34,847 nucleotides of DNA from Chloroflexota bacterium. GTDB taxonomy: Bacteria; Chloroflexota; Limnocylindria; P2-11E. The translations under genes and the position numbers were made by a program. Positions within the stretch are counted from its first letter, which is position 1, and each line of letters begins with the position of its first letter. The notes under the pieces were generated by a model. It saw nothing but the letters and a program-made list of their open reading frames with translations. It made no database searches and had not been told where the DNA came from. Below, in pieces: positions 11,419-34,847 of the stretch. Where the stretch lies: the NCBI GenBank assembly GCA_016875665.1, contig VGPA01000001.1, positions 1 through 34,847 on the forward strand, read 5' to 3'.

Positions 11419-11426
11419 TTCGCAGG

Positions 11427-11453
11427 ATTATCGCGGCTGCGCCGCGCAGCCGC
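11427..11453 (-). promoter_or_regulatory. Candidate leaderless promoter -10 (GATAAT) plus an adjacent 21-bp perfect palindrome (candidate operator) upstream of rfbF
   Basis: On the minus strand, GATAAT (plus coordinates 11427-11432) is followed by 8 nt (cctgcgaa) and then ATG 11418, with no Shine-Dalgarno. Immediately upstream is GCGGCTGCG-ccg-CGCAGCCGC (11433-11453), a 9-bp perfect inverted repeat that occupies the spacer and -35 position. Confidence 0.35.
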
Positions 11454-11487
11454 CCAAACGCGCCGCGTCCGATCTAGCGGGGCATCC

Positions 11488-11521
11488 AAAAAGAACAAAT
11501 CCGACGGGTTCGGCCCGTAGG
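11488..11521 (-). terminator. Intrinsic-terminator-like hairpin plus T-tract (minus strand)
   Basis: Minus strand reads CCTACGGG-ccgaa-CCCGTCGG (7 bp with one mismatch) followed by ATTTGTTCTTTTT. It sits exactly where the coding signal (GC3) of the orphan ORF decays. Confidence 0.4.
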
Positions 11522-11803
11522 TGGTGGGATTCGGCGAGATCGTCACGCCGTCGGCGCTCCGCACGCCCGTGATCGTGATGGTGTTCGTGCCGGCCAGGCC
11601 CCACACCCCGAGCGAACCGGTGCACTCGAGGAAGTAGCTGTTCGGTTGGTCCCCCTCCCTGACCGATGCGGTTCCGCCCGGGAGGCAAATCACCCCTGCG
11701 CCCTGGTTGTTGATGTTGTACGAGCTGACGTTCGCAACCGAACCGGCGGCACCCACTTGCCCTTGGACGGCGACCATCTGCTTGGAGAAGACGGGTCGCA
11801 TTT

Positions 11804-12029: not shown

Positions 12030-13004
12030 ATGAAGAGCATTCGCGTGGGTGTGATTGGCGTGGGCAACATGGGAATCCACCACGCGCGGGTGTTCTCGAT
12101 GATCCCCGGCGTCGAGGTCGTGGGAGTCGCCGACCCAGACCCGGAGAGGCTGGGGCGCGCGCGCGACGCCCATGACGTACCCGGTTTCGCGGACCACCGT
12201 GAGCTCTTGGGGATCGTCGACGCGGTTTCGATCGCCGTCCCGACCGCCCTCCACCGAAGGATCGCTGGCGAGTGCCTCGAGCGAAACGTGCATGTCCTCG
12301 TGGAAAAGCCGATCGCGGCGAGCGTCGGGGAGGGCGAGGAGCTATTCGCGCTCGCCCATCGCCACAAGGTCGTGCTCCAGGTCGGCCACATCGAGCGCTT
12401 CAATCCGGCGGTGCAGGAGCTGCGGAAGATTGTCGTCGGCCAGACGCTGTACGCGATCGGCACCCGGCGGTGCAGTCCGCCCACGCCCCAGATCGCGGAC
12501 GTCGACGTCGTATTTGATCTGCTGATCCACGATCTCGACATCGCACTCGCGCTCGCGGACGCCCCGGTCCGTTCGATCAAGGCGATGGGCCGTGCGGTCA
12601 AGGATCGCCGCACCGATCACGTTCTCGCACAGGTCGAGTTCGCGAACGGAATCCTCGCCGACCTTGTTGCGAGCAAGATCACCCAGCAGCGCATCAGGGA
12701 GCTTGCCGTGACGACGGACAGCTCCTACATCACCCTCGACTACATCAGCCGCGATATCGCGGTGTACCGCAACGCCTCGGTGACCGCGGCCGGCGGCGCC
12801 TCCAGTCCGCTGCAGCACACCGAAGGAGTCGTCGTCGAAAAGCCGGTCGTGCGGCCCATTGAGCCGCTCCGACTCGAGCTGGAGCACTTCATCGGGTGCG
12901 TCAACGGCGGGCCGGCGGTCACCAGCCCTTCCGATGCGCTGGCGGCGCTGCGCCTCGCCAGCGCCATCGCGGACCAGGTCGCGCTCCGTCCGAGCGGCTC
13001 CTAG
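12030..13004 (+). CDS. Gfo/Idh/MocA-family NAD(P)-dependent sugar oxidoreductase (WbpB/UDP-sugar 3-dehydrogenase-like)
   Basis: MKSIRVGVIGVGNMGIHHARVF..., VSIAVPTALH, VLVEKPIA, and the GHIERFNP motif. Start ATG 12030. The 13 upstream codons in the track read through the relic. Confidence 0.8.
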   Translation: MKSIRVGVIGVGNMGIHHARVFSMIPGVEVVGVADPDPERLGRARDAHDVPGFADHRELLGIVDAVSIAVPTALHRRIAGECLERNVHVLVEKPIAASVGEGEELFALAHRHKVVLQVGHIERFNPAVQELRKIVVGQTLYAIGTRRCSPPTPQIADVDVVFDLLIHDLDIALALADAPVRSIKAMGRAVKDRRTDHVLAQVEFANGILADLVASKITQQRIRELAVTTDSSYITLDYISRDIAVYRNASVTAAGGASSPLQHTEGVVVEKPVVRPIEPLRLELEHFIGCVNGGPAVTSPSDALAALRLASAIADQVALRPSGS

Positions 13005-13006
13005 AG

Positions 13007-14773
13007 ATGGATCACCTCGCGGCGGTCCTCATCGCTGCCTTCGCGGTCAGCGCCCTTTGCACACCGCTCTTCGCGCGGCTGGCCCGCCGGATCGGTCTCA
13101 CCTCGAAAGTGCGCGACGACCGCTGGGGAGCGGGTCGCACGATCCCGCTGCTCGGCGGCGCGGCCATGGCGCTCGCCCTGCTCGTGGTGCTCTCCGCGGC
13201 CCCGGGGCATGAGGATCTGCTCGCCGTGCTGGGTTGCGCGGCCGCCGCGTTCGCGCTCGGGCTCCTCGACGACTTCCGCCACCTCGAGCCCTCGACGAAG
13301 CTGGTGGGGCAGGTGGTGGTCGGCTCGGTTCTCTTCTTCGGCGGCGTCAAAGTCGAGTTCATCGGCTTCGCGCCCATCGCGTTCCTGCTGACGGTGTTCT
13401 GGGTGGTCGCGATGATGAACGCACTCAACCTCATGGACAATATGGACGGGTTGGCTGCGGGCGTCACCGCGATCGCGGCCATCGCGCTTGCCGTGGGCGC
13501 CACGCCGGACAGCCCGACCGCGGCGCTCCTTGCGGCGGCGACGGCGGGGATCTCCCTCGGCTTTCTCATCCACAACTTCTCACCGGCGCGCGTGTTCATG
13601 GGCGACGCCGGAAGCATGCTGCTCGGGTTCCTGCTCGCCGCCACGGCCCTCGCCGACACGAGCCGGACCGCGTCGAACGTCGGGTTGTCACTGATCGGTC
13701 CGCTCGCCGTGCTCGCGCTGCCGATCTTCGACACCACGCTGGTGGCCGTTTCGCGGCGGCTCGCCGGGCGATCGGTCGGCCAAGGCGGGAGAGATCACAC
13801 CTCACACCGGCTCGCGGCGCTGGGAATGTCGGACCGGAGTGCCGTGCTCACGCTGTACGCCGTCGCGGCGGCGCTCGCCGGTCTCGGGGTGCTCGCGGAT
13901 CTGCTTTCGACGCTCATCGTCCCGATCGTCGTGCTGTCGATGGTCGCGCTCATCCTGTTCGGGATCTTCCTCCAAGAGGTGCGGGTCTACGGCTGGCGGG
14001 GCCGGCCGGGATCGGACGCCGTCGAGCAGAGCGCCGTCCGCCGGAACATGTGGCTCATCGCGCGGTTCGGCGGTGAGATCGGCTTGGACGCCATCCTCCT
14101 CACCGTCGCGTACTACAGCTCGTTCCTGATCCGGTTCGAGGGCCCTCCGGAAGACTCGTGGCTGTACCTCTTCGTCGAGTCGGTTCCGATCGTCGTGGCG
14201 ATCCAGCTCGGCACGCTCGTGCTGTTCGGCGCGTACCGGACGCTCTGGCGCTACGTCGGAGTCTCGGATGCCACGGTGATCGTCCAGGCCGTCATCGTGG
14301 GCGCGGCCGCCGCGGCGTTCGCACTCCTTTTCATCTACCGCTTCGAGGGCTACTCGAGGGCAGCGTTCATCATCGACGGGCTCCTCGCCGCCGCCCTGCT
14401 CGTCGCGAGCCGCGCTTCACTCGTTTGGCTGCAGCATTGGTTCGCGCGTCTGCCGAAGGCCGACAGCACGCGCGTGCTGATCGTGGGCGCGAATGACGGG
14501 GGAGCTTTCGCGCATCGGCTGCTCACCCACTCGACCGAGCGGACCTACCACGTCGTCGGGTTCCTCGACGACGACCCGGGCAAGCGCTATCGCAACGTCG
14601 CCGGCGTCCGGATCGTCGGCACCACGGCGGACCTTCCGGCCGTGGTCGAGCGGCTGAACGCCGAGCTGGTCGTCCTGGCGCTCGGTCAGGACGATCGTGA
14701 AGCGACCGCCCGAATCCGGGCCGCCGCCAGCGAGGCCGGAATCGAGTGCCGCGAGCTCATCCTCCCCTTGTGA
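13007..14773 (+). CDS. Polyprenyl-phosphate hexose/HexNAc-1-phosphate transferase (WecA/MraY family) fused to a CapD/WbpM/PglF-type N-terminal membrane + Rossmann-like domain
   Basis: 588 aa from ATG 13007. N-terminal half: LLDDFRHL, NALNLMDNMDGLAAG, VFMGDAGSMLLGF, DHTSHRL. C-terminal half: 4 predicted TM helices, then RVLIVGANDGGAFAHRLL...YHVVGFLDDDPGKRYRNVAGVRIVGTTADLPAVVERLNAELVVLAL. That pattern normally precedes the dehydratase domain of CapD/WbpM or the catalytic domain of WbaP-type transferases. Confidence 0.8.
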   Translation: MDHLAAVLIAAFAVSALCTPLFARLARRIGLTSKVRDDRWGAGRTIPLLGGAAMALALLVVLSAAPGHEDLLAVLGCAAAAFALGLLDDFRHLEPSTKLVGQVVVGSVLFFGGVKVEFIGFAPIAFLLTVFWVVAMMNALNLMDNMDGLAAGVTAIAAIALAVGATPDSPTAALLAAATAGISLGFLIHNFSPARVFMGDAGSMLLGFLLAATALADTSRTASNVGLSLIGPLAVLALPIFDTTLVAVSRRLAGRSVGQGGRDHTSHRLAALGMSDRSAVLTLYAVAAALAGLGVLADLLSTLIVPIVVLSMVALILFGIFLQEVRVYGWRGRPGSDAVEQSAVRRNMWLIARFGGEIGLDAILLTVAYYSSFLIRFEGPPEDSWLYLFVESVPIVVAIQLGTLVLFGAYRTLWRYVGVSDATVIVQAVIVGAAAAAFALLFIYRFEGYSRAAFIIDGLLAAALLVASRASLVWLQHWFARLPKADSTRVLIVGANDGGAFAHRLLTHSTERTYHVVGFLDDDPGKRYRNVAGVRIVGTTADLPAVVERLNAELVVLALGQDDREATARIRAAASEAGIECRELILPL

Positions 14774-15792: not shown

Positions 15793-16743
15793 ATGGTCGC
15801 CGTGAGCGAAGGTCAGCGCATCCTCATCACGGGTGGCGCGGGGTTCATCGGATCGCATCTCATCGATCGCCTCCGCTCGAGGTACGACATCACCCTCTTC
15901 GACAACCTCCAACGCAATGCGCTCGCACGCGACGTGCTGAGCAAGGGTGTGCGGCTCATCGAGGGCAACGTGCTCGACGCCCAGGCGATGACGCGGGCGA
16001 TGGCCGGCCACACGCTGGTGCTCCACCTCGCGGCAATCGCCGGGACGCGATCCGTGGGCAAGGACAGCGCGCTCACCTCCAAGGTCAACTTCACCGGAAC
16101 GGTGAACTGTCTCGAGGCCGCGGCGGACGCGGGTGCCAAGCGCGTCGTGGCATTCTCGACGTCGGAGGTCTACGGCCGCCGAGCGCTGGATGTGACCGAG
16201 GATCAGCCCGCGCAGATCCCGCCCGCCGACGACGACGAGCGCTGGGCCTATGCCGCGAGCAAGCTCGCGGCCGAGCACGCCGCGATGGCATTCCATCGCG
16301 CGGGAAGGGTCGAGGCGGTCGTCGTGCGACCCTTCAACGTGTACGGACCCGGCCAGGTGGGCGAAGGGGCGATCCGGGACATGGTGGACGTCGCGGTGAG
16401 GGGCGGTCCCATCGTGGTCAAGGGCGACGGGACGCAGATTCGCTCGTGGTGCTACGTTGAGGACTTCGTCGACGGCACGGTCGCGTGCCTCGAGCGGCAG
16501 GAGGCCGCAGGACGCATCTTCAACATCGGGAACCCCGCGGCGACGGTCGACAGCAATGAGCTCGCCGCCACGGTCGCGCGGCTCGCGGGAGGAGTCCGGG
16601 TCACGCGCGTGGCCGCGAACGGTCCCGATGTCGAGCAGCGGCGTCCCTCGATCGAGCGCGCGAAAGCGCTGCTCGGCTTCTCGCCGAAGATCGGCCTGGA
16701 GGAGGGCATTCGCCGGACGATCGCGTGGCGCCGCGCCGTCTAG
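15793..16743 (+). CDS. Extended SDR NAD-dependent epimerase/dehydratase
   Basis: RILITGGAGFIGSHLIDRL, FSTSEVYG, YAASKLAAE, RPFNVYGPG, GDGTQIRSWCYVEDFV. Specific activity cannot be assigned. Confidence 0.75.
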   Translation: MVAVSEGQRILITGGAGFIGSHLIDRLRSRYDITLFDNLQRNALARDVLSKGVRLIEGNVLDAQAMTRAMAGHTLVLHLAAIAGTRSVGKDSALTSKVNFTGTVNCLEAAADAGAKRVVAFSTSEVYGRRALDVTEDQPAQIPPADDDERWAYAASKLAAEHAAMAFHRAGRVEAVVVRPFNVYGPGQVGEGAIRDMVDVAVRGGPIVVKGDGTQIRSWCYVEDFVDGTVACLERQEAAGRIFNIGNPAATVDSNELAATVARLAGGVRVTRVAANGPDVEQRRPSIERAKALLGFSPKIGLEEGIRRTIAWRRAV

Positions 16744-17444
16744 CGCCGGGTAAGCCGGCCGAGCTCGGCCAGCAACCTCCCGAATGGGGTCTGGTCGTCG
16801 GAGCGCGAGGCGCCGGGAGGGTTCGGCAGCAGCTTCACGATCTCCGGGTAAGCGATCCCGCCCGCTCCCTCCGGGCTGGCGAGCGTGCGGGTGAGCTCGG
16901 GGAAGGCGCGGAGCTGATCGAGGCTTGCCAGGCGCCCCGCCCCATCGCGCAGCGGGAACCCGCCCCGGACATCGAACACGCGCCAGTCGCCGTCGACCTG
17001 CGCGTAGGCCACGGCGTGCACGACTCCGCCATCGGGGCGGCGTGCGAACGCGAGCGCTCCGCTGATCCCCTGGTAGCCGACGAGCGTCGCGAACACGTCC
17101 GCCGCCTGATCGGAGTTGCCGTAGCCGCGGATCACGACGTTCAGGGTGTGGTCGTCCACGACCGGGAGCCCGGGCGGTTGAGGCCGCACGTTGCCGTGCA
17201 CCCAGCGCAGAATGGACAGAGCGCGATCCTCCTGTGACTCACCGGCACCCGCGACCGCCTGGGAGGCTACGCGGCGCAGCTGGAGGTCCCGCGAGACGAA
17301 CATGATCGCCTTCTCGTAGAGCGGGATCTGGTACGTCGACACCTTGAAATCGACGCCGACGCTCGTGGTCGTGGGGAGGCTCGCGACCACGACGAGAACC
17401 GCGGCGGCCGCGATGACGACCGCGAGACGGCGGTACCGCTGCAC
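16740..17444 (-). CDS. Membrane-anchored extracytoplasmic protein with a transglutaminase-like core (Cys position is Ser)
   Basis: 234 aa from GTG 17444 (VQRYRRLAVVIAAAAVLVVVASL = N-terminal TM anchor). Core: RGYGNSDQAADVFATLVGYQGISGALAF...VVHAVAYAQVDGDWRVFDV. This resembles the G.C..fa..f...lr..Gi.ar...HaW.ev...g.W..fD triad layout with Ser in place of Cys. The functional call is tentative. Confidence 0.45.
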   Translation of the reverse strand: MQRYRRLAVVIAAAAVLVVVASLPTTTSVGVDFKVSTYQIPLYEKAIMFVSRDLQLRRVASQAVAGAGESQEDRALSILRWVHGNVRPQPPGLPVVDDHTLNVVIRGYGNSDQAADVFATLVGYQGISGALAFARRPDGGVVHAVAYAQVDGDWRVFDVRGGFPLRDGAGRLASLDQLRAFPELTRTLASPEGAGGIAYPEIVKLLPNPPGASRSDDQTPFGRLLAELGRLTRR

Positions 17445-18715
17445 TATCTGCCAATGCCCAGGTAGGCGGCTCCTGCCCTGCGGACCCTCTCCGGATCGAG
17501 GACGTTCCGGCCGTCGAGGACGACCGAGGCTCCCGTCGCGGCAAGCCACGCCAGGTCGGCGTACTCGGGCGCGAGCGCCTGGACGATGACCGCGTCGGCC
17601 CGCGCGAACCCGGGGCCCTGCGCGGGAGTGAAGCCGAACGCGCTCAGCTCGTCCGGGGTGAGAAGCGGATCCGCGGCCAGCACAACCGCACCGGCGTCGC
17701 GGAGAGGCTTCAGCAGCCTGATCGCCGGGCTGTTCGCGGTGTCCTTCACCCCGGGGCGATAGGTCACGCCGAGGATCAGCACGCGAGCCCCGGCGAGCCC
17801 TCCCTTGCGTCCGGAAGCGAGCCGCTCCACCGCGTAGTCGACCATTTCGTCGTTCTGCTCGCGCGCACTGAGCACGATGTCCGCGCTCTCGGGAGAGCGC
17901 GCTGCGTAGAAGTAGGGGTACACGGGGATGCAGTTGCCACCCACGCCCACGCCCGGAGAGTGGATGTGCGAGTACGGCTGGGAGTTGGCGCAGCGGATCG
18001 CCTCAGTCGCGTCGACGCCGAGGCCATCGGCCGCGCGGGCGAACGCGTTCGCCAGACCGATATTCGTGTCGCGGTAGGTCGTCTCGATGAGCTTGACGAA
18101 CTCCGCCGTCTCGGCGTTGGCGACCTCCCAGGTCTCGAGGCCGAGCCCCTCGCGGTAGAAGCGCGCGGCGCGGCGGGTCGCCTCCTCATCGATGCCCCCG
18201 ACGATCTTCGGGTATGTGCGAAGGTCGCGGAAGACGACCCCGACGGAGACGCGCTCCGGGCTGTACGCCATCCAGAAGTCACGGCCGTGCTTGCGGCCCC
18301 CACGTTCGAGAACCGGAAGCACGCGATCGCGGGTGGTTCGCGCCGGGACGGTCGACTCGATGACGACCGTCGTGCCGGTGCCGAGGCCACGGCTGATGTC
18401 CTCGCTCGCCCCGTCGAGCGCCGAGAAGTCGATGTCATCGGCGGATGTGGCGTGGACGGGCACGATGACGATGACGATCTCGGCGTTCGCGACCGCCGCG
18501 GCCGTATCCGACGTCGTCCGCCACCTGCCGGTGGCCGCGCCCGCCGCAAGCGACTCGCGCAGCTCGGGCTCGAGGAGGAGCTCGTCGTCGAGCCGGTCGA
18601 TCACGCTTCTTCGGGACGGACTCACATCACTGCCGGTGACGTCGTGACCGGCCGCCAGATAGAAGCCGGCGAGCGGCAGGCCGAGCCTTCCCAAGCCGAC
18701 GACCGTCACACGCAT
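17444..18715 (-). CDS. Nucleotide-sugar dehydrogenase (UDP-glucose/GDP-mannose dehydrogenase family), second copy
   Basis: MRVTVVGLGRLGLPLAGF, YSPERV, GVGVGGNCIPVYPYF (catalytic Cys), VLILGVTYRPGVKDTANSP. Start ATG 18715. Stop TAG 17444-17446 shares 1 nt with the next GTG. Confidence 0.8.
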   Translation of the reverse strand: MRVTVVGLGRLGLPLAGFYLAAGHDVTGSDVSPSRRSVIDRLDDELLLEPELRESLAAGAATGRWRTTSDTAAAVANAEIVIVIVPVHATSADDIDFSALDGASEDISRGLGTGTTVVIESTVPARTTRDRVLPVLERGGRKHGRDFWMAYSPERVSVGVVFRDLRTYPKIVGGIDEEATRRAARFYREGLGLETWEVANAETAEFVKLIETTYRDTNIGLANAFARAADGLGVDATEAIRCANSQPYSHIHSPGVGVGGNCIPVYPYFYAARSPESADIVLSAREQNDEMVDYAVERLASGRKGGLAGARVLILGVTYRPGVKDTANSPAIRLLKPLRDAGAVVLAADPLLTPDELSAFGFTPAQGPGFARADAVIVQALAPEYADLAWLAATGASVVLDGRNVLDPERVRRAGAAYLGIGR

Positions 18716-20840: not shown

Positions 20841-21368
20841 GTGAGTCCCGGCGGCCAACACGCATCGCATGGGACCGGCGAGCTGCAGCTGGATCGCTTC
20901 AAAGCTCTCGGCTCGAACGTCGTGTTCGAGCCCGGGGTGCTCGTCTTCCACCCCGAGACCATCAGCATGGGCTCGAACATCTATGTCGGGCACAACGCGA
21001 TCCTCAAGGGCTACTACAAGTCCGAGATGCAGATCGGGGACGACAGCTGGATCGGCCAGCAGTGCATGTTCCACAGCGCCGGAGGCCTCTACATCGGCAA
21101 GAAGGTCGGGATCGGGCCCGGCGTCGGGATTCTCACCTCCACGCACGAGGATCAGGGGCGCTTCGTTCCGCTCCTCACAAGCCCACTGGTCGCCGCCGAA
21201 GTGGTGATCGAGGACGAGTGCGATCTCGGCTGGGGTACGATCGTGCTGCCGGGGGTGACGATCGGGCGTGGCGCGCTCGTCGGTGCCGGCTCGGTCGTGA
21301 CGAGCGATGTCGAGCCCTACTCGGTCGTCGCGGGCGTACCGGCCAAGCTCCTGCGCATGCGGGAGTAG
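20841..21368 (+). CDS. Left-handed beta-helix (hexapeptide-repeat) sugar acetyltransferase
   Basis: 175 aa from GTG 20841, preceded by AGGAGG. Hexapeptide repeats: IGSNVVFEPGV, MGSNIYVGHNA, IGDDSWIGQQC, IGKKVGIGPGV, IEDECDLGWGT, IGRGALVGAGSVV..VEPYSVVAGVPAK. The 537 upstream codons of track ORF 19230..21368 are an antisense shadow. Confidence 0.8.
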   Translation: MSPGGQHASHGTGELQLDRFKALGSNVVFEPGVLVFHPETISMGSNIYVGHNAILKGYYKSEMQIGDDSWIGQQCMFHSAGGLYIGKKVGIGPGVGILTSTHEDQGRFVPLLTSPLVAAEVVIEDECDLGWGTIVLPGVTIGRGALVGAGSVVTSDVEPYSVVAGVPAKLLRMRE

Positions 21369-22121
21369 TCAGCCGCGATCGCGGGCGCGCCGGTCGAGAG
21401 TCGCCGAAAGTCCTCCGGTGACATCCTGCGCGTACGTCGCGTTGACGCTCATGTAGCCGTCAATGATCGCCATGCGCCGCCGCTCGATCCGATCGAAGAT
21501 CTCGTCGTAGCCGAGGCCCTGCTCGGTGAAATGCTCCGGATGGAGAAGCAGCTGAGCCACTCCGCCGCGCGTTCGCGAGACGAAGGCGAAGGGATCCTCG
21601 CCGACGATCATGCGCGAATCCGAGAGGTATCGACCGGGCACGAACAGCTCGGCGCCGTATGCCCCACGAAAGCCGTCGAAGGCCGGGTACAGCCCGTTGG
21701 CCGACGGGTTGTGCAGGCTCAGGGAGGTGACCGGCTGACCGGTGATGTCCTCGAGGAGACGCGCTTCGTTCCGCACGCGTGCGGCCAGCTGCGCGCGGTC
21801 GGCGCTTCCGTACGCGGCCGGCCAGAAGTGCAGTCCGATGTCGAAGCCCGCTTCGGCGAGGCTCCTGAGCACGGCACGGCTCGCGGGGGCGGCCACGTTG
21901 TAGAGGTCGCTGGTTGTCATGACGCAATACGTCGCCGGGATCCCGAGTTGCTGCTCGAGCTCGCTGACGCCCGCGGTGCCTGAGAGATCGAGGTCGACGT
22001 CATGCCGCAGCACGAGGGCGTCGCCGCCATCCCAGTCCCTGATCGACGTGAGCCGCCGCTCCGATCGGGCGAACTCGAAGAACCGGCGGAGCTCCGAAAG
22101 GCGGAAGAACGCTGGTCGCAT
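21369..22121 (-). CDS. Divergent polysaccharide deacetylase (CE4-like, HDVD type; WbmS/ArnD-like)
   Basis: 250 aa from ATG 22121: LVLRHDVDLDL, GIPATYCVM, AGFDIGLHF, SLSLHNPS, LLLHPEHF. The family call is by motif resemblance only. Confidence 0.55.
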   Translation of the reverse strand: MRPAFFRLSELRRFFEFARSERRLTSIRDWDGGDALVLRHDVDLDLSGTAGVSELEQQLGIPATYCVMTTSDLYNVAAPASRAVLRSLAEAGFDIGLHFWPAAYGSADRAQLAARVRNEARLLEDITGQPVTSLSLHNPSANGLYPAFDGFRGAYGAELFVPGRYLSDSRMIVGEDPFAFVSRTRGGVAQLLLHPEHFTEQGLGYDEIFDRIERRRMAIIDGYMSVNATYAQDVTGGLSATLDRRARDRG

Positions 22122-23116
22122 CAGGCGCCCACCGGCGCCCGTCGGCCGACCATGTTCAGGCCCACGCTCGGCAGCCGTCGGACGTCCACGACACCCGCGT
22201 TGCGGAGCGCGGCGGTGACCTCGCTCTCCCGTTGGGGCTGGTCGTACGCGGGCCCGAGCATGTCGAGGGTGTCGAGGAGCGCCCACTCGTAGCGCTGGCT
22301 CCGGCTGAGCTCCTTCAGGTCGACGTAGTTCGCGACCGGGATGGCGAAGCGGAAGACGCGTCCGAGAAGCGGGATTCGGAAGAGCACGTCCGTCAACGGG
22401 AACAGGACGGGCATGAGGCGGCGGACCAGGCTCAGCTTGCCCTCGGTGCCCAGCGGCCGGAGCACCGCCCGCGCGAGGTACTTGCTGTAGAGCGGGGTCG
22501 TCCGGCGCCGCTCGTACGCCGTCACGGCGATGTGGGCATCGGGGCGCGCCGGGACCGCCAGCGCCGCGACCGCACGTAGGGGATCAGGCGTGTGCTGCAC
22601 GACGCCGATGCAGTACACCGCCTCGAACGTCCCCGGGGCGAAGGGCATCGCATACACGTCGGCCTGGACGAGCTCGACGCTGGGGTCGCCCGCGACGTTC
22701 AGTGCCGCCGCATCGACTGCGTCGCTGTAGTCCAGGCCGACCACGTGCGCCCCGAGACGCGACGCGACTTCGACGAAGCGCCCCGCACCGCAGCCCACGT
22801 CGAGGACCCGCTTGCCCTTCCACCACTCCGCCGGCAGCCCGGTCTCCGACAGGAGTCGCCGCTCCGAAAGCGTCGTCCCGTTGAAGCGATCGATCTGCGC
22901 GGTCCGAAAGCGCTTCCACTGCTCACCGAAGGACCTGGCGTAGTTCTCCGCCGGTACGAAGCGCGGAATGCCGGCAACGATCGGGAACTCCCGACCGCAG
23001 GCATCGCACCACAGCGACCCGGACACGATGCGCTCACCCTCGCGGTCTCCGACCACGCAGCGCAGGGCGCCGCCGCACGACGGACAGCGGAGGAGGTCCG
23101 TGAAGCCGGCCTTCAA
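22121..23116 (-). CDS. Class I SAM-dependent methyltransferase with N-terminal Trm112-like zinc ribbon, paralogue 2
   Basis: LLRCPSCGGAL...LWCDACGREFPIVAGIPRFV, then VLDVGCGAGRF. Same architecture as 3942-5027. Favoured start is TTG 23116 (TTGA overlap with the asnB-like stop). The alternative GTG 23167 would overlap by 55 nt. Confidence 0.7.
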   Translation of the reverse strand: MKAGFTDLLRCPSCGGALRCVVGDREGERIVSGSLWCDACGREFPIVAGIPRFVPAENYARSFGEQWKRFRTAQIDRFNGTTLSERRLLSETGLPAEWWKGKRVLDVGCGAGRFVEVASRLGAHVVGLDYSDAVDAAALNVAGDPSVELVQADVYAMPFAPGTFEAVYCIGVVQHTPDPLRAVAALAVPARPDAHIAVTAYERRRTTPLYSKYLARAVLRPLGTEGKLSLVRRLMPVLFPLTDVLFRIPLLGRVFRFAIPVANYVDLKELSRSQRYEWALLDTLDMLGPAYDQPQRESEVTAALRNAGVVDVRRLPSVGLNMVGRRAPVGA

Positions 23117-28565: not shown

Positions 28566-29743
28566 AGGTCGTCTTCCTCACCCACAACGGGTCGGCGACC
28601 GCGCTGGTCCGGAGCCAGGTGCTCCCCTACCTCCGCCGCCTCATCGCCCGCGGCGTGACGATCGACCTGGTCAGCTTCGAGCGCGGGGATCTTCCCGCGC
28701 CGCCCGAGGGCATCGCCCGCTGGCATCCGATCCGCGCGACCGCCGGCCAGGGGCTCCTTGCCAAGGTCCGCGACATCCTCATCGGCGGCTTCCGGGTCGG
28801 CGCTTTGCTGCTCCGCGGAACCGACGTGGTGCATGCGCGGAGCTACCTGCCGGCCGCGATCGCGTGGGCCGCGCACGCGGTCTTGCGGCGCCCGTACATT
28901 TTCGATATGCGCGGCTTCCTCCCCGAGGAGTACGTGGAAGGCGGCCACTGGACCGAACGGGATCTCAGATACCGCGTGCTGCGCTGGGTCGAATGGCATC
29001 TGCTGCGCGGTGCCGCGGCCGTGGTGGTGCTCACGCACCGTGCGGAGGAGCGCCTACGCACGGAGCCGCGCTACGCGCGCGCGCTTCCGCAGGAGACCCC
29101 GGTCACGGTCATCCCGTGCGCGGTCGATCTCGATCGCTTCCGCCCTGCGCCCGAGCGGCGGCCCCATCCGACGCTCGTCTACGCCGGCTCGCTGGGCATG
29201 TGGTATGCGCTCGACCCGATGCTGCGGGTGTTCGCCCAGGCGCGGCGCGCCGTGCCCGATCTGCGCTTCCTCGTGCTGAACGTCGGCCAGCACGAGATCG
29301 TCCGCGAGCGCGCGGCGGCGCACGGCCTCCTAGACGCCGTCGAGATCCGGGCGGCGTCGTTCGATGAGATGCCGGGCCTGCTCGGCGGGGCGCACGCCGG
29401 GATCTGCCTGCTAGAGCAGGCCTCCTCGAAGCTCGGCTCGTCGCCGATCAAGGTCGCGGAGTACCTCGCGTGCGGGCTCCCCGTGGTGGTGAATGCCGGC
29501 CAGGGGGACACCGATTCGCTCGTGGCGCGCGACGCCGCGGGGCACGTGATCACGGGCTATTCCGACGCCGAGATCGCCCGCGCCGCGGCCGGGCTGGTCC
29601 GGCTCCTGGGGGACGAGGACGCCCGTGCGAACGCCCGCCGTCTCGCGGAGCGGGAGTACTCGGCGGACCGCGCCGCCGAGGACTACCTCGGGATCTACGA
29701 AGCGGTCAGCGCGACCCGAAGAACCGCCCGAACGACTCGATGA
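28562..29743 (+). CDS. Glycosyltransferase family 4 (GT-B)
   Basis: MKVVFLTHNGS..., LVYAGSLG, SSPIKVAEYLACGLPVVVN. ATGA overlap with the upstream stop. The last 38 nt overlap the convergent gene. Confidence 0.75.
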   Translation: MKVVFLTHNGSATALVRSQVLPYLRRLIARGVTIDLVSFERGDLPAPPEGIARWHPIRATAGQGLLAKVRDILIGGFRVGALLLRGTDVVHARSYLPAAIAWAAHAVLRRPYIFDMRGFLPEEYVEGGHWTERDLRYRVLRWVEWHLLRGAAAVVVLTHRAEERLRTEPRYARALPQETPVTVIPCAVDLDRFRPAPERRPHPTLVYAGSLGMWYALDPMLRVFAQARRAVPDLRFLVLNVGQHEIVRERAAAHGLLDAVEIRAASFDEMPGLLGGAHAGICLLEQASSKLGSSPIKVAEYLACGLPVVVNAGQGDTDSLVARDAAGHVITGYSDAEIARAAAGLVRLLGDEDARANARRLAEREYSADRAAEDYLGIYEAVSATRRTARTTR

Positions 29744-30983
29744 CCCGTCCGAGCTGACGCTCGGTCAAGGCCGGGTGCACCCCGATGAAGAACGCGTTGT
29801 CGCGGAGCATGCGCGCGTTGGGCAGATCACCCGCCACGCGACCCGGCTGGTTGCGGAATCCCGGCTGGTCCGGAAGGCATCCCGCGAAGATCGGTCGCGT
29901 CTCGATGCCGTCCCGCTCCAGGTGGCGCACGAGCTCGCCGCGCTTCACGCCCGAGCCCGGCACCACAGTGAGCGGGTACGTGTAGTACGTGTGCGTCAGG
30001 CCCGCAGGCACCTTCGCCGGCCGCACATAGCTCGCGAACCGCGCGAGCTCGCGCGTGTAGAACGCGGCGTTCGCGATGCGCTTGGCGTTCATCGCGTCCA
30101 GCTTGCGCAGCTGCTCGACGCCGAACGAGGCGGTCACATCGGTCATGCGGACGTTGTACCCGATGCGCTCGAAGATGTAGCGCTTGTCGTAATCGACGAG
30201 CTTGTCGTCGGTGTAGAAGCGCCCCTCGTCGATCGCCGCCTGGTCGAGGCGCCCGAACTCGCGGAGCGACCGGTTGACCTTGGCATACCTGTCGTCGTTG
30301 GTCAGGACCATCCCGCCCTCGCCGGTGGTCATGTTGTGCGCGACGAAGAAGCTGTGCGTCGCCAGAGTGCCGAAGCTCCCCACCTTGCGGTCCCCGATCG
30401 CCGCGCCGTGCGCCTCGCAGCAGTCCTCGAGAATCTTCAGGCCGCGACGCTCGGCGACACGCGCGATCGCTGGGATGTCCGCGGGATACCCGAGCGTGTG
30501 GACGGCCATGATCCAGCGGGTGCGCGGCCCGACGGCGGCGTCGCACGCGCCCGCGTCGAGGTTGTACGTGAGGGGATCGACGTCGGCGTAGACGGGGACG
30601 CATCCGACCTGGATCACCGGGGAGGCAACGGTGGCGAACGTCGTCGCCGGCACGATCACCTCGTCGCCGGGTGCGAGGTCGCCCATCTCGATCGCGGACG
30701 CCAACGCGAGCAGATTCGCCGACGAGCCCGAGTTCACCGCGACCCCATGCCGCGTGCCGACGTATGCCGCGAAAGCGGCCTCGAACTCGCGGACCTTCGG
30801 TCCCTGCGAGATCCAGTTGGACAGGATGGTGCGCAGCGCCGCCTGCGGCTCGCGGGCGTCGTACGCCACGGAGCTCAGCGGCACGCGATCGGTGGTCGCC
30901 TCGTTCGCGATCCGCGACGCCACGTACCGGGCGATGAGGGCATCCATCTCGGCGAGGAGCCGCTCGCGCTCCTGATCACTCAC
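29706..30983 (-). CDS. DegT/DnrJ/EryC1-fold NDP-4-keto-6-deoxyhexose 3-dehydratase (RfbH/E1- and ColD-like; catalytic His in place of Lys)
   Basis: 425 aa with a GTG start (GTGA overlap). NSGSSANLLAL, EDCCEAHG, HSFFVAH216NMTTGEGG (His codon at 30336-30338), and C-terminal FFIGVHPALTERQL..ESFGRFFG, which resembles RfbH. It lacks the Cys cluster of E1. Confidence 0.7.
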   Translation of the reverse strand: MSDQERERLLAEMDALIARYVASRIANEATTDRVPLSSVAYDAREPQAALRTILSNWISQGPKVREFEAAFAAYVGTRHGVAVNSGSSANLLALASAIEMGDLAPGDEVIVPATTFATVASPVIQVGCVPVYADVDPLTYNLDAGACDAAVGPRTRWIMAVHTLGYPADIPAIARVAERRGLKILEDCCEAHGAAIGDRKVGSFGTLATHSFFVAHNMTTGEGGMVLTNDDRYAKVNRSLREFGRLDQAAIDEGRFYTDDKLVDYDKRYIFERIGYNVRMTDVTASFGVEQLRKLDAMNAKRIANAAFYTRELARFASYVRPAKVPAGLTHTYYTYPLTVVPGSGVKRGELVRHLERDGIETRPIFAGCLPDQPGFRNQPGRVAGDLPNARMLRDNAFFIGVHPALTERQLGRVIESFGRFFGSR

Positions 30984-31900
30984 GACAGCGTCCCCGCTCC
31001 AGAAGCCAATGCACGTCGGATCCCCTCCTCGAATTCAACCGAAGCCTCCCAGCCGAGGAGGCGCTTCGCTTTCGCGGTCAGCGCGGCGTGTCGCGAGTGC
31101 CCCGAGCCCTTCTCGTCCGGCCGGACGGGAAGCTTCTCGAACACCAGCGCGAGGTCGCCCTTTCCGAGCACGCGCGCGATTGCGTGCGCCGCATCGCGGA
31201 TCGATCGCTCGCGGCCGCTGGCGACGTTCACAGCCTCGGCCCCCCGCACGGCCTGCACCTTCGCCACGGCGGCGCGGATCGCGCCCACCACGTCGTCGAT
31301 GTAGATGAAGTCACGCGTCGACTCGCCGGGACCGAACTCGACCTGCCCGCTCGCGCCGGCGATCTTGCGGATCGCCGAAGCCATGAATGAGGAGTCCTTC
31401 GCACCTGGGCCGTAGACCGTGAAGATGCGCAGCAGGATCGACGGCACCGAGAAGCAGCGCCAGAACGCGATCGCCGCCGCCTCAGCGCCGAGCTTGGACG
31501 CTCCGAGCGGGGAGATCGGATCAAGCCGGGTGGATTCGTCCCACGGCAGCTCGGAGGAGCCGTCATAGACGTACACGCTGCTCGCGAGCACGACCGCTCC
31601 GCCCGAAGCGCGCGCGAGCTCGAAGATGCGCGCCGTGCCGGCCGCGTTCACGCGCATCGCTTCCATCGGTGCAGCCAGCGCATCACCTGGCGCGACGACA
31701 CCCGCGCAGTGGACGATCACGTCGAACGGGGGCAGATCCGCGGGTTGCGCGAGCACGTCGGCTTCCACATACCGCTCGCGCGGGATGCCGGCGCGCTCGC
31801 TGTAGGTCCGTGACCAGCCCCAGACCTCATTGCCGTCGGCGAGGGCCCGCGCCGAGGCGCCTCCGATGAATCCGGATGCCCCGGTGATCAGTAGCCGCAT
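30980..31900 (-). CDS. Extended SDR, probable NDP-4-keto-sugar reductase coupled to the 3-dehydratase
   Basis: 306 aa from ATG 31900: MRLLITGASGFIGG, ASSVYVYD, SPLGASKLGAE (YxxxK region), RIFTVYGPG, TRDFIYIDDVV. The track extension to 32035 is antisense to the GT2 gene. Confidence 0.7.
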   Translation of the reverse strand: MRLLITGASGFIGGASARALADGNEVWGWSRTYSERAGIPRERYVEADVLAQPADLPPFDVIVHCAGVVAPGDALAAPMEAMRVNAAGTARIFELARASGGAVVLASSVYVYDGSSELPWDESTRLDPISPLGASKLGAEAAAIAFWRCFSVPSILLRIFTVYGPGAKDSSFMASAIRKIAGASGQVEFGPGESTRDFIYIDDVVGAIRAAVAKVQAVRGAEAVNVASGRERSIRDAAHAIARVLGKGDLALVFEKLPVRPDEKGSGHSRHAALTAKAKRLLGWEASVEFEEGIRRALASGAGTLS

Positions 31901-31934
31901 GCGATGGGGGGCTGCACGCCGCGATACTACGGGA
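31901..31934. promoter_or_regulatory. 34-bp divergent spacer with back-to-back -10-like boxes (GATACT / TAGTAT)
   Basis: Plus strand: GATACT at 31923-31928, then 6 nt to GTG 31935 (leaderless pattern). Minus strand: TAGTAT (plus coordinates 31924-31929), 23 nt upstream of ATG 31900. Confidence 0.35.
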
Positions 31935-32678
31935 GTGTCCGAGGCCGAGCCAGAGCTTTCGATCCTCCTTCCCGTGTACCACGAGGAAGAGAACGTCGGA
32001 CAGGCGATCGAAACGATCGCGACCAACGTGCGCACCGCCTACGAGCTGCTCGTCGTGTACGACAGCGAGAGCGATCCCACGGTGGCAGTGGTCGAGCGGA
32101 TTCGCGCGGCCGACGCGCGCGTGCGCCTGGTCAGGAACCGCTTCGGCGCCGGTCGCGGCCTGCTGAACGCGATCCGCACCGGCATCGCGGAGGCCCGCGG
32201 GGACGCGCTACTCGTGACGATGGCGGACAACACCGACGACATCGCCGCGGTCGACCGCATGGTCTCGCTCCATCGTGAGGGCAACGTGGTGGTGAGCGCG
32301 ACCCGCCACTCGAGGGGGGGCTCGATGAGCGGGGGGCCGTTCATGAAAGGCTTCCTGTCGCGCTGGGGAGGCATCACGCTGCACTGGCTGACCGGCCTGC
32401 CGACGTCCGATCCCACGAATGCCTTCAAGCTATGGGACGCGGCGTTCGTCCGCAGGACACCCATCGAGACCACCGGCGGCTTCGAGTACTCGCTCGAGCT
32501 CTGCGCCAAGGCCTACGCCGCCGGCGAACGGATCGTCGAGATCCCGACGGCGTGGCGCGAGCGCGAGGTCGGCACGTCGAAGTTTCAGCTCTGGAAGTGG
32601 CTTCCCCGCTACGTTCGCTGGTACGCGTGGCTCGTCCGCCGCACCTGGGCCGACCGGCTGCTACGCCGACGGCGCTGA
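31935..32678 (+). CDS. GT2 polyprenol-phosphate glycosyltransferase (DPM1/ArnC/GtrB-like)
   Basis: LSILLPVYHEEENVGQAIETI, LLVVYDSESDPT, TMADNTDD (DxD), NAFKLW, GFEYSLEL, and a C-terminal amphipathic or TM tail. I favour GTG 31935 because only 5 of the 11 codons between ATG 31899 and it end in G or C. ATG 31899 would overlap the divergent ATG 31900 (CATG). Confidence 0.75.
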   Translation: MSEAEPELSILLPVYHEEENVGQAIETIATNVRTAYELLVVYDSESDPTVAVVERIRAADARVRLVRNRFGAGRGLLNAIRTGIAEARGDALLVTMADNTDDIAAVDRMVSLHREGNVVVSATRHSRGGSMSGGPFMKGFLSRWGGITLHWLTGLPTSDPTNAFKLWDAAFVRRTPIETTGGFEYSLELCAKAYAAGERIVEIPTAWREREVGTSKFQLWKWLPRYVRWYAWLVRRTWADRLLRRRR

Positions 32679-33737
32679 GTACCACTCCAGGGTCTGCAGG
32701 AGGCCTTCCGCGAGCCAGTGCTGCGGCGTGAATCCGGTCAGGTGCCGGAGCCTCGTGGTGTCGGGACAGCGCCGCGAGACCGATCCGTCGCGCCGCCCGG
32801 CCTCGCGGATCGGCCGGTCGATTCCCATGAGCTTCATGAGCAGGCGCGTGAGGTCCTCCACACGGATCTCCTCCCGCGCATCCCCGATGTGCACCAGGTC
32901 GGGAGCTTCGGGCAGCGCGCCGACGAGCCGGGTGGCCTCGACCGCGTCGGCCACGTAGCAGAACGCGCGCGTCTCATCGAGGCCGAACACGTCGAGCGGC
33001 CCGGACCCCCCGCGGATGCGGGCGATCAGCTCAGGCACCACATGGCGGTGGCCCATCCGAGGGCCGTAGACGTTGTGGTAGCGGATCACCGTCGTAGGCA
33101 CGCCCTTCGCCTCAGCGAAGCGCAGGGCGAGGAACTCGCCCATGAACTTGCTGGTGGCGTACGAGAACCGGATCTTCGTCGGCTGCGTGAAGACGACGGG
33201 CGCGGATTCATCGGTTGGGACCTGCAGCAGCCCGACGGCGCCGGCGTCGGCATAGACCTCCGAGGTCGAGGAGTAGACGAGGCGCCCGGGCCGCCCTCGC
33301 TCGGCGGCGTCGAGGACGTTCATCATGATGCGTAGGTTCGCGGTCGAGACTTCGTACGGCTTCTCGTAGAAGAGCTGCGTGCCGTTGATCGCGGCGAGGT
33401 GGTACAGGACGTCCACGCCGGCGTGCGGGGCGAGCGCCGCCGCGCCATCGGCCGTGGCAAGGTCGATCCGCTCGAGGTGCACGGAGCCGGAGGCGAGCAG
33501 GCGAGCGAGGTCGGCGTCGACCGCTCCATCGCCCTTCGCGAGGCTGTCGACCAGGGTGACCCGGTCGCCCCTCGAAGCGTGCAGACGAGCGAGGTGGAAG
33601 CCGATGAAGCCGCCGCCGCCGGTGATGAGAACCGTCGCGATGCGGTCAGTGTACGGGCGTTGCGAAGCCGTTTCCGGTAATCTGAGCCTCTGGGCACGGA
33701 TCTTCAGCGGCGCGTCATGGCATACATCCGCGCGCAT
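32661..33737 (-). CDS. Extended SDR, UXS/ArnA-decarboxylase-like; true start uncertain
   Basis: VLITGGGGFIGFHLA, SSTSEVYA, FSYATSKFMGE, RYHNVYGPRMG, ETRAFCYVAD. ATG 33737 is the only canonical in-frame start, but the 32 codons before IATVLITGGGG look non-coding. Only 21 of 31 end in G or C, and they include AGA, TTA, GTA and CAA. See the finding on ATC 33641. Confidence 0.68.
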   Translation of the reverse strand: MRADVCHDAPLKIRAQRLRLPETASQRPYTDRIATVLITGGGGFIGFHLARLHASRGDRVTLVDSLAKGDGAVDADLARLLASGSVHLERIDLATADGAAALAPHAGVDVLYHLAAINGTQLFYEKPYEVSTANLRIMMNVLDAAERGRPGRLVYSSTSEVYADAGAVGLLQVPTDESAPVVFTQPTKIRFSYATSKFMGEFLALRFAEAKGVPTTVIRYHNVYGPRMGHRHVVPELIARIRGGSGPLDVFGLDETRAFCYVADAVEATRLVGALPEAPDLVHIGDAREEIRVEDLTRLLMKLMGIDRPIREAGRRDGSVSRRCPDTTRLRHLTGFTPQHWLAEGLLQTLEWYSAPSA

Positions 33738-34847
33738 CCATGGCTCTCGGCGTTCGCTGCCGTCACCGGCCTGTTGCTGGGCCTCGGCATCGGACTGCCC
33801 CTCTCAAGAGGGCAATTCGGCGCGGTGGTGCTCATCGCCGTCACGTCGGCGCTGGTCGGCCTTCTCTTCCGCCTGCTCGTGCCGAATGAGCACCGGCCGG
33901 CGGTCGGTATCGCGCTGCTGCTCGGGCTGGGCCTGCGGTTCGCCTCCGCCGCGGTCCTGTACTTCGGTGCCGAGGCGCTCGGCCGGACGGTGTTCTCCTC
34001 GACCGTTCCGATCTATTACGTCGTGGGTGATGACGCGAGCTATGCGGAGCTCTCCTGGGGCGTCCTCCAGTGGATGCAGGGCCGACCCGACCCGCGCTTC
34101 TTCCCCGTGTCCTGGTTCGGGCAGGCGTATCTCATCGGATCGTTCTTCTTCCTCGAGCTCTTCGTTTTCTGGATCTTCGGACCGGTCATGCTGCACATCC
34201 AGATTGTCAACGCGGCACTGGGTGGGGCGACGGTGCTGCTCGTGTATGGCATCGCGTCTAGGCTCCTCGGCGCCCGGCCGGCGCTGCTGAGCACGTTCGC
34301 CGTAGCCCTCCTCCCCTCGATCGTGCTGTGGAACTCGGTTGGGCTCAAGGACTCGCTCGCGCTCGCCTTGATCGCGGCGGTCCTATGGCTCTTCCTGCGC
34401 TTCCAAGAGCGGCCGCGCTGGCCGCTCATGCTCGTGATCTTCGTCACGCTCATTCCGATCGAAACGACGAGGCGTTACCTGTACGTCGTCCTCTCGGGCC
34501 TCTTCCCGGTGGCGGTCGCGCTCACCCCGCGCCTCGCGCTGCCGCGACGCATCCGCATGACCGCCGGTGCCGCCCTGCTTGCGTTCGTCCTGCTCTCTCT
34601 CGGCGCCGCTGCCGGCCAGGGTACGTACGGCATTCCCACCGGATTCGCCACGTTCGAGGCCATACGCCTCGGCATGGGTGAGGGAGCCCGGACGAGCTAC
34701 GCCGACCCGCGGGCGATCGTGGTGAACACCGGAGATCGGTTCGTCGTCGTGGACGCGGACCGGACACCGGCACCCACCCTTCAGCCATCCGCGACACCGG
34801 CACCCACCCTTCAGCCATCCGCGACACCGGCACCCACCCTTCAGCCA
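33717..34847 (+). CDS. Polytopic membrane protein, GT-C superfamily glycosyltransferase-like (ArnT/PMT_2-like); 3' end beyond window
   Basis: Absent from the ORF track because it has no stop in the window. My translation from ATG 33717: MAYIRAHPWLSAFAAVTGLLLGLGIGL...YYVVGDDASYAELSW (acidic DD loop)...IQIVNAALGGATVLLVYGIASRLLGARPALLSTFAVALLPSIVLWNSVGLKDSLALALIAAVLWLF... It has at least 9 hydrophobic helices, then a soluble region ending in TPAPTLQPSA repeats. 377 codons are open to the window end. Confidence 0.6.
   Translation, partial: MAYIRAHPWLSAFAAVTGLLLGLGIGLPLSRGQFGAVVLIAVTSALVGLLFRLLVPNEHRPAVGIALLLGLGLRFASAAVLYFGAEALGRTVFSSTVPIYYVVGDDASYAELSWGVLQWMQGRPDPRFFPVSWFGQAYLIGSFFFLELFVFWIFGPVMLHIQIVNAALGGATVLLVYGIASRLLGARPALLSTFAVALLPSIVLWNSVGLKDSLALALIAAVLWLFLRFQERPRWPLMLVIFVTLIPIETTRRYLYVVLSGLFPVAVALTPRLALPRRIRMTAGAALLAFVLLSLGAAAGQGTYGIPTGFATFEAIRLGMGEGARTSYADPRAIVVNTGDRFVVVDADRTPAPTLQPSATPAPTLQPSATPAPTLQP
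34763..34847 (+). repeat. Perfect 30-bp tandem repeat (2.8 copies visible, continues past window end), in frame, encoding (TPAPTLQPSA)n
   Basis: gacaccggcacccacccttcagccatccgc occurs at 34763-34792 and 34793-34822, with a partial copy at 34823-34847. All copies are identical. The repeat lies in frame with the GT-C-like CDS. Confidence 0.95.

Follow-up and report, generated by a model that had tools for sequence, protein, structure and literature searches.

A histidine-type relative of the sugar 3-dehydrase E1 without the iron-sulfur loop, from a Chloroflexota polysaccharide locus, belongs to a widespread clade with a conserved gene cassette

To our knowledge, the enzymes described for sugar 3-deoxygenation are few, namely E1 (RfbH/DdhC/AscC), ColD and SpnQ, all of which act on 6-deoxyhexoses or heptoses. 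Here a related gene is analysed, located at positions 29706-30983 on the minus strand of a 34,847-nucleotide stretch of DNA from a Chloroflexota bacterium (contig VGPA01000001.1 of assembly GCA_016875665.1); this whole stretch is referred to as the window. Replacement of the catalytic Lys by His is the key difference that sets the sugar 3-dehydratases E1, ColD and SpnQ apart from the aminotransferases (PMC8987622). In E1 and SpnQ, a [2Fe-2S] cluster and a reductase then reduce the ene-amine adduct; in ColD, which has no Fe-S cluster, the adduct is hydrolysed and pyridoxamine 5′-phosphate (PMP) is regenerated from glutamate (PMC8987622). The same route as in ColD is followed by the ColD-type enzymes of C. 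jejuni. On balance it is likely, though by no means assured, that the protein from the window is a PMP-dependent nucleotide-sugar 3-dehydratase of a distinct clade, with the architecture of E1 but no [2Fe-2S] cluster, acting in the pathway that is proposed below for a conserved gene cassette.

The product of the gene, hereafter the target, is a 425-aa protein with the DegT/DnrJ/EryC1 fold. Its open reading frame (ORF) has a high third-position GC content, as do the real genes of the window (69 % GC), and its start codon, GTG, shares bases with the stop codon TGA of the gene upstream (GTGA, 30980-30983). The Pfam family DegT_DnrJ_EryC1 (PF01041) matches residues 44-418 of the 425 (E = 2.6e-100), and in the PDB, HMMER finds Yersinia E1 (3bcx; 1e-74), whose residues 2-434 align with residues 2-423 of the target. 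E1 is the best match in sequence (255 bits, compared with 208 for GDP-perosamine synthase and 195 for the structure 9WVY), although the identity between the two is only 34 %. It is also the best match in structure. The AlphaFold2 model of the target (pLDDT 91.6, pTM 0.90) is weak only at the cofactor loop, residues 214-221, and Foldseek aligns it with 3bcx at a TM score of 0.90 over 426 columns, the N-terminal helix included; GDP-perosamine synthase, ArnB and ColD follow in that order, and many structures of the family are matched at TM 0.75-0.9. Common to E1 and the target are the N-terminal helix, the His described next, the R-x-(W/F)-G-R...RF frame of the iron-sulfur loop and a C-terminal FxIGxHP...FF.

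Where aminotransferases have their Schiff-base Lys, codon 216 of the target is CAC (30336-30338, minus strand), which encodes His and sits inside HSFFVAHNMTTGEGG. The HMMER alignment places this His216 on His220 of E1 (SFYPAHHITMGEGG), whereas the same site is Lys in perosamine synthase, and the target has no internal-aldimine Lys in the SF..xK..TxGEGG motif. The Lys that characterises a sugar aminotransferase in the catalytic sense is therefore absent, and the His that characterises a 3-dehydratase is present. His216 is found in all 124 aligned members of the clade to which the target belongs and is also invariant in alignment A1, and two base changes separate CAC from any Lys codon; it is therefore neither a chance substitution nor a sequencing error. 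Within the sugar aminotransferase fold, the target belongs to the His type.

The ligands of the [2Fe-2S] cluster of E1, which we take to be C193, C251, C253 and C261 (motif C-X57-C-X1-C-X7-C), were checked for position on 3bcx. In alignments of the target with 3bcx, no Cys is present at the counterparts of the loop ligands C251, C253 and C261. Residues 240-256 of the target (LREFGRLDQAAIDEGRF; 30216-30266, minus strand) are a Cys-free counterpart of the E1 loop that holds these three ligands, and HMMER against the PDB sets REFGRLDQAA, ID and EGRF, separated by gaps of two and three columns, on the E1 Cys loop. The target has five Cys in total (128, 147, 188, 189 and 369). C188 and C189 lie in EDCCEAHG (30417-30422, minus strand), and C189, the equivalent of C193, is the only E1 ligand position that is kept. 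ColD and 9WVY, neither of which has the cluster loop, contain this Cys as well, and it is therefore not diagnostic of a cluster. Neither was a reductase of the E3 (AscD) type identified: Pfam scans of all sizeable ORFs, up to the window end at 34847, found no Fer2, FAD_binding_6 or NAD_binding_1 domain, and no E3-type domain was found in the flanks of the relatives' loci. A first-pass annotation, made from the sequence of the window alone, had already described a 425-aa DegT/DnrJ/EryC1 protein with His at the Lys position, an RfbH-like length and N-terminal helix, no Cys in the Fe-S loop and no E3 in the window. Each of these points is borne out by the present alignments, models and scans, and the E1 motifs that it gave are correct according to the 3bcx alignment.

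Among E1-type proteins, four of approximately 780-830 aa (P0185, P0194, P0237 and P0253) contain intein-like insertions of approximately 400 residues, the site of which coincides with the first Cys of the Fe-S loop (RDWGRDCF ... HNCWC).

The target is not an oddity of its contig. A large protein search with it as query gave 7595 proteins below 1e-30 among 8000 candidates scored. Within the top 120, 116 fit the motif pattern, all of them with His, as SFF(V/I)AHN(M/I)TTGEGG, and with 0-2 scattered Cys after the motif; the other four are off-pattern. In a library of representatives at 50 % identity, the majority of the nearest relatives are likewise of the His type, and these fall into distinct classes: an E1-like class (SFYPAHH...RDWGRDCWC...C, with four aligned Cys), a ColD-like class (SHH...RAHGW), the type of the target (SFFVAHN...REFGR, with no Cys) and smaller classes that include the type of PDB 9WVY (SFYAGHHLTMGEGG...RAFGRNPDYRLGRF). 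Proteins of the target type are found in Candidate Phyla Radiation (CPR) bacteria, DPANN archaea, Omnitrophota, Nitrospirota, marine Proteobacteria and soil bacteria; cultured carriers include Neptuniibacter caesariensis MED92 (locus L027) and Nannocystis exedens. The closest relatives, encoded in loci L085 and L086, are 62 % and 66 % identical to the target, and no homologue above 55 % identity was found in the GTDB species genomes.

Across 124 sequences of the clade, H216, N217, H192, F243 and Y334 are present in 100 %, and H331 and V214 in 98 %; AHN in place of AHH/SHH, and R391, are further clade-specific invariants. Phylogenetic placement, which had been suggested as a check on the first-pass annotation, sets the target outside canonical RfbH. 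In a neighbour-joining tree with 100 bootstraps, in which deep branching is weakly supported, the target type forms a group of its own with 16 leaves, apart from the E1, ColD and 9WVY groups, and the target scores 340.7 bits against the NCBIfam equivalog for RfbH (NF011936), below the cutoff of 423. By alignment and placement, the target is assigned to a large, well conserved clade, separate from those of canonical RfbH, ColD and 9WVY.

Each of these three relatives differs from the target in its own way. Unlike E1, which has AHH where the target has AHN, the target has no loop Cys and no E3. ColD (WbdK; 2GMS) resembles the target in being of the His type, without an Fe-S cluster and without a reductase partner, and is the mechanistic model for it, with hydrolytic release of the product and PMP regenerated from L-glutamate. 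However, its sequence match is weaker (1.6e-47), it has approximately 390 aa and no N-terminal helix, its motifs SSFYSHH and RAHGW differ from those of the target, and it forms a separate clade in the tree. Domain and NCBIfam scans found no GDP-mannose 4,6-dehydratase or GDP-mannose pathway in the window. An E1-like, Cys-less His enzyme has already been deposited as a structure, 9WVY, under the name 'putative NDP-4-keto-6-deoxyglucose-3-dehydratase'; no paper on it was found in a literature search. It shares with the target the relationship to E1, the His-type motif (SFYAGHHLTMGEGG) and the Cys-free loop (RAFGRNPDYRLGRF), but belongs to another, small clade, has 399 aa and is without the AHN, H192, Y334 signature.

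Conservation within the clade also bears on whether a cluster might be held by non-canonical ligands (C188, C189, C369 and H192), with electrons supplied by general ferredoxin/flavodoxin reductases as in SpnQ (dTDP-4-keto-2,6-dideoxyglucose 3-dehydrase). C188 and C189 are conserved, C369 is present in 90 % and is clade-specific, H192 is present in 100 %, and SpnQ, a His-type enzyme like the target, does not need a dedicated E3 (PMC8987622). SpnQ, however, keeps the [2Fe-2S] motif and needs the general reductases, whereas the target is without the motif and its loop offers no second or third ligand. In addition, C189 is conserved in the cluster-free ColD and H192 is common in Lys-type aminotransferases. 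As C369 is Asn in several clade members (L027, L029, L036 and L038), such an alternative site is unlikely, and a clustered enzyme of this kind is given very little credence here.

The clade's own invariant signature (AHN rather than AHH/SHH, F243, Y334 and R391) could instead reflect other PMP/pyridoxal 5′-phosphate (PLP) chemistry that would be new to the fold, with a keto sugar undergoing, for instance, elimination, epimerisation or isomerisation. This would be compatible with the absence of a characterised member from the clade and with the unusual active site of a partner enzyme, described below. There is no positive evidence for such chemistry, however, and the His-for-Lys swap has so far been linked only to 3-dehydration; it is considered decidedly improbable.

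The gene neighbourhood provides the evidence on substrate. The window is a large polysaccharide locus, with glycosyltransferases, a Wzx flippase, an AsnB-like amidotransferase, WbqC, two nucleotide-sugar dehydrogenases (NSDH), and an rfbF/rfbG-like pair with a sugar C-methyltransferase after it. Next to the target come, in this order, SDR-A, GT2 (on the opposite strand), SDR-B and PMT_2, the last running to the window end. SDR-A (30980-31900, minus strand) is an extended short-chain dehydrogenase/reductase (SDR) that is translationally coupled to the target through the GTGA, and SDR-B (32661-33737, minus strand) is a second SDR with the STSEVY and YxxxK of UXS/ArnA-type enzymes. The family 2 glycosyltransferase GT2 (31830-32678, plus strand), divergent from SDR-A, is of the ArnC/GtrB polyprenyl-phosphate type, as indicated by weak matches to ArnC and PgfS. 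PMT_2 (33681-34847, plus strand), identified by Pfam, is an ArnT-like glycosyltransferase of the GT-C type and is cut by the window end.

By BLAST, SDR-A and SDR-B are orthologues of two genes, SDRup, usually the upstream one, and SDRdn, that accompany the His-type enzyme (DegTHis) in cassettes across many phyla. The orders observed are NSDH-SDRup-DegTHis-SDRdn, NSDH-SDRdn-SDRup-DegTHis and NSDH-SDRdn-DegTHis. The survey covered 80 loci of GTDB species genomes, 45 of them of the target type, with a limit of 6 kb. Within that distance, NSDH is present in 32 of the 45 target-type loci, a gene of the SDR-B type in 29 and one of the SDR-A type in 20. With wider limits, SDRdn lies within 9 kb in 37 of 50 AHN-type loci and a second SDR within 2.5 kb in 38 of 50, and short contigs explain most of the exceptions. 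ColD-like loci of the same survey rarely show the cassette association.

In L085 and L086, the genes for GT2, SDRup, the His-enzyme, SDRdn and the dehydrogenase form one block. Beyond the dehydrogenase, L085 has two PMT_2 genes; in L086 a PMT_2 homologue lies beyond GT2. The GT2 of the window is 60-64 % identical to those of L085 and L086, and its PMT_2 is 58 % identical to the L086 homologue and 36 % identical to that of L085. A full Arn-like gene set is thus present in both loci, and the window has all of it but the cassette-type dehydrogenase. The window holds a rearranged copy of the cassette, the dehydrogenase of which may lie past the contig end. A link with nonulosonic-acid synthesis, considered on account of NeuB and CMP-transferase genes in some loci, was rejected as inconsistent across loci and chemically implausible.

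The same cassette context is found around two AHN-type homologues from archaeal MAGs that have Cys-rich loops, GRACTCPIC...C in L041 (9995-11284) and GRACFCDHC in L049 (1312-2607), in both of which the CxC is aligned exactly on C251/C253 of E1. Both genes adjoin a gene of the SDR-B type, and that of L041 also has a dehydrogenase. Because these CxC-containing relatives share the dehydrogenase-SDR context with the target type, it is plausible, and suggested by the alignments, that the Fe-S cluster was lost inside a single functional lineage.

As likely substrates, the first-pass annotation had proposed CDP-4-keto-6-deoxyglucose, made by the products of rfbF/rfbG, or a UDP-4-keto sugar of an Arn-like block. 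In the former case the target would be an Fe-S-free equivalent of RfbH, converting CDP-4-keto-6-deoxy-D-glucose supplied by the window's rfbF and rfbG homologues (10645-11418 and 9656-10684) to a CDP-3,6-dideoxyhexose. This agrees with E1 being the closest solved relative and with two genes of the window, one for a glucose-1-phosphate cytidylyltransferase, which scores at the cutoff with 300.2 bits, and one for an SDR that resembles CDP-glucose 4,6-dehydratase. Homologues of these two genes (66 % identity for rfbF, 80 % for rfbG) directly adjoin the cassette in L086 (6790-8399), the locus of the target's closest relative; the window contig and L086 probably derive from related soil organisms that carry rearranged versions of one locus. 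However, a glucose-1-phosphate cytidylyltransferase is found within 6 kb in 0 of the 45 target-type loci, and a close CDP-glucose dehydratase homologue in only one. The rfbF/rfbG homologues of the window are 19 kb from the target, in an apparent operon with a C-methyltransferase able to use the same intermediate, and the target is below the RfbH equivalog cutoff. The clade keeps company with a putative uronate dehydrogenase and a putative decarboxylase, E1 with CDP-glucose genes. A role for the target in CDP-sugar synthesis is therefore regarded as improbable. The second proposal of the first-pass annotation fares better, given NSDH in 32 and an SDR-B type gene in 29 of the 45 loci: the context points to a uronate-derived UDP-4-keto-pentose in an Arn-like pathway as the putative substrate, CDP-4-keto-6-deoxyglucose being unlikely.

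SDR-B is 39-44 % identical to SDRdn by BLAST and 59-60 % identical to the SDRdn of L085 and L086. Throughout its family the Glu of S-x-E-V-Y is invariant and the YxxxK is normal, and the family aligns with human UXS1 (UDP-glucuronate decarboxylase) over STSEVY, the Tyr and the Lys. Because of these UXS1-like motifs and the uronate-forming dehydrogenase next door in the cassettes, the best reading of SDR-B is as a putative UXS/ArnA-like oxidative decarboxylase that would release a UDP-4-keto-pentose. None of the NCBIfam equivalogs is assigned to SDR-A, SDR-B or the cassette dehydrogenase.

SDR-A is 44-48 % identical by BLAST to the SDRup of L001 and L003; its ORF is open to 32035, and the ATG at 31900 fits the start of the Rossmann fold. 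Where YxxxK is expected, it has SPLGASK, with Tyr replaced by Leu at the catalytic position, as confirmed by PDB alignments. The replacement is kept in at least nine orthologues (for example L001 7063-8004, L003 1488-2456 and L086 2159-3112). The SDR-A type has a conserved Tyr two residues ahead of the VY motif (ASSVYVYDG), and CPR orthologues have STDR(L/V)YG, in which the Tyr is kept. In one protein of 742 aa, P0104, a His-enzyme of the target type and an SDR-A-type partner are naturally fused. E1-type enzymes are often fused N-terminally to RmlD-like reductases, and other fusions are P0160, P0161, P0163, P0176, P0178 and P0200. The first-pass annotation had regarded the GTGA-coupled SDR as the obvious 4-ketoreductase partner of the target. 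The fusion in P0104 upholds it as a conserved partner, but with LGASK at the place of YxxxK its function as a 4-ketoreductase is not obvious. As the second SDR is conserved and coupled to the target, a keto product is favoured, and with it dehydration over amination.

For the mechanism, a reductase-independent, ColD-like route on an E1-like scaffold, as the first-pass annotation had also concluded, is the most economical reading of the comparisons, because the His is present, the cluster motif is absent and no reductase is nearby. A UDP-uronic acid would be provided by the nucleotide-sugar 6-dehydrogenase, and SDR-B would oxidise C4 and decarboxylate it to a UDP-4-keto-pentose or a 2-acetamido analogue. 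The target would then form a ketimine between PMP and C4, His216 would take the C4′ proton and the 3-OH would leave. Since there is neither an Fe-S cluster nor an E3, the ene-amine adduct would be hydrolysed as in ColD, giving a 3-deoxy-4-keto sugar, ammonia and PLP, and PMP would be regenerated from L-glutamate. SDR-A would process the 4-keto product, most simply by reduction. In this lineage, the ArnC-like GT2 may then transfer the sugar to polyprenyl phosphate, and the ArnT-like GT-C from there to a surface acceptor.

Several observations weigh against this reading. In the tree, the bootstrap of the target clade is only 49 %, compared with 91 % for the group of all His-type sequences, and neither the tree nor a literature search for a characterised member places a characterised enzyme inside the clade. 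At three conserved positions of the clade, H192, N217 and H331, the residue is closer to that of Lys-type aminotransferases than to that of E1 or ColD. The window has no cassette-type NSDH; its own two are 25-30 % identical to that type and at least 11 kb away. The position of the rfbF and rfbG homologues beside the cassette in L086, given above, also counts here. To assign SDR-A, without the canonical Tyr, to a standard 4-ketoreductase role would be premature. For SDR-B, the NCBIfam model of UDP-4-keto-pentose/UDP-xylose synthase scores far below its cutoff, and GDP-mannose 4,6-dehydratase has a similar S-x-E motif (T-S-E), so that the decarboxylase assignment rests mainly on the adjacent dehydrogenase. 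That dehydrogenase in turn resembles UDP-ManNAc more than UDP-Glc dehydrogenases, and so the identity of the sugar is uncertain, a 2-acetamido sugar being possible. Finally, a 3-deoxy-pentose is not reported as a glycan constituent in the searchable literature, and given this absence the prediction is either novel or incomplete.

Some of these points would suit an analogue of ArnB, which would transaminate the UDP-4-keto-pentose, yielding a 4-amino-4-deoxy-pentose or, if dehydration also occurs, a 4-amino-3,4-dideoxy sugar, with His216 shuttling protons, and pass the product into the ArnC/ArnT-like route. ArnB has the same fold (Foldseek TM approximately 0.8 when normalised to the query and approximately 0.9 when normalised to ArnB) and the same place as the target in its gene set, beside a dehydrogenase, an ArnA-type SDR, an ArnC-like GT2 and an ArnT-like GT-C. 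In addition to the residues H192, N217 and H331, GDP-perosamine synthase is nearly level with E1 as a match to the target (208 compared with 255 bits), and SpnQ is able to transaminate with PLP and glutamate when the reductase is absent (PMC8987622). However, ArnB has a catalytic Lys and an amino-sugar product, and the characterised catalytic sugar aminotransferases of the fold all use Lys. Transamination by E1 required the change H220K, and ColD and E1 are without transferase activity in such conditions (PMC8987622). The Arn pathway includes formyltransferase and deformylase steps and no second SDR, while for the target locus the reverse is the case: domain scans found no formyltransferase or deformylase (ArnA-N, ArnD) in the window, and the extra SDR is present. 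As its DegT enzyme is also of the His type, the gene set of the window can at most be called a variant of the Arn type. A keto product is favoured by the invariance of the His and by the conservation of the second SDR, which in P0104 is fused to the enzyme, and an ArnB-like aminotransferase is therefore held to be unlikely, with the PMP-dependent 3-dehydratase remaining the preferred reading.

More tentatively, and with rather less confidence than is placed in the dehydratase itself, the clade may be part of a widespread, undescribed pathway. Together with the WecC-like dehydrogenase, the UXS/ArnA-like decarboxylase and the atypical second SDR, it might produce a UDP-3-deoxy-pentose, a 2-acetamido-2,3-dideoxy-pentose or a 4-amino-3,4-dideoxy variant. 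In such a pathway, an enzyme descended from E1 would have given up the cluster, and reductive chemistry would have been replaced by hydrolysis with recycling by glutamate; in the soil lineage the sugar would be delivered by an Arn-like lipid-carrier route. No literature report of such sugars in bacterial or archaeal glycans was found.

Elsewhere in the window, positions 6099-11418 (minus strand) have an operon-like arrangement of the glucose-1-phosphate cytidylyltransferase, the CDP-glucose 4,6-dehydratase-like SDR, the sugar C-methyltransferase, a UXS/ArnA-like SDR and a nucleotide-sugar dehydrogenase. The C-methyltransferase has zinc-binding, methyltransferase and C-methyltransferase C-terminal domains, and the operon suggests a CDP-linked branched-chain deoxysugar as product. 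A second C-methyltransferase is located at approximately 2692-3900 (minus strand). The gene at 12896-14773 (plus strand) encodes a 625-aa protein that combines Glycos_transf_4 (WecA/MraY-type) with a C-terminal CoA_binding_3, a domain more usual with WbaP-type phosphoglycosyl transferases. A class I S-adenosylmethionine-dependent methyltransferase (approximately 3942-4700, minus strand) and a hexapeptide-repeat acyltransferase (approximately 20900-21368, plus strand) lie inside long spurious ORFs. Three ORFs, at 11415-11801, 16740-17549 and 21369-22286 (all minus strand), have gene-like third-position GC and no Pfam match.

Cluster-free 3-dehydratases are already known in ColD and 9WVY, and a further one is therefore a moderate surprise; the value of the finding is in a testable, widespread and unannotated pathway. 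Should the target prove to be of the usual ColD type and to act on a known substrate, the result would be only a routine refinement of annotation. If the proposed reading is true, the clade, in thousands of genomes including those of CPR bacteria and DPANN archaea, would bring 3-deoxygenation to uronate-derived pentoses, and a new cell-surface sugar would be predicted. The annotations 'aminotransferase' and 'CDP-6-deoxy-D-xylo-4-hexulose-3-dehydrase' would then probably both be wrong for the clade. The archaeal members with the Cys loop and the bacterial members without it, in the same context, would be a natural experiment in the exchange of one-electron chemistry by an Fe-S cluster and reductase for cofactor recycling.

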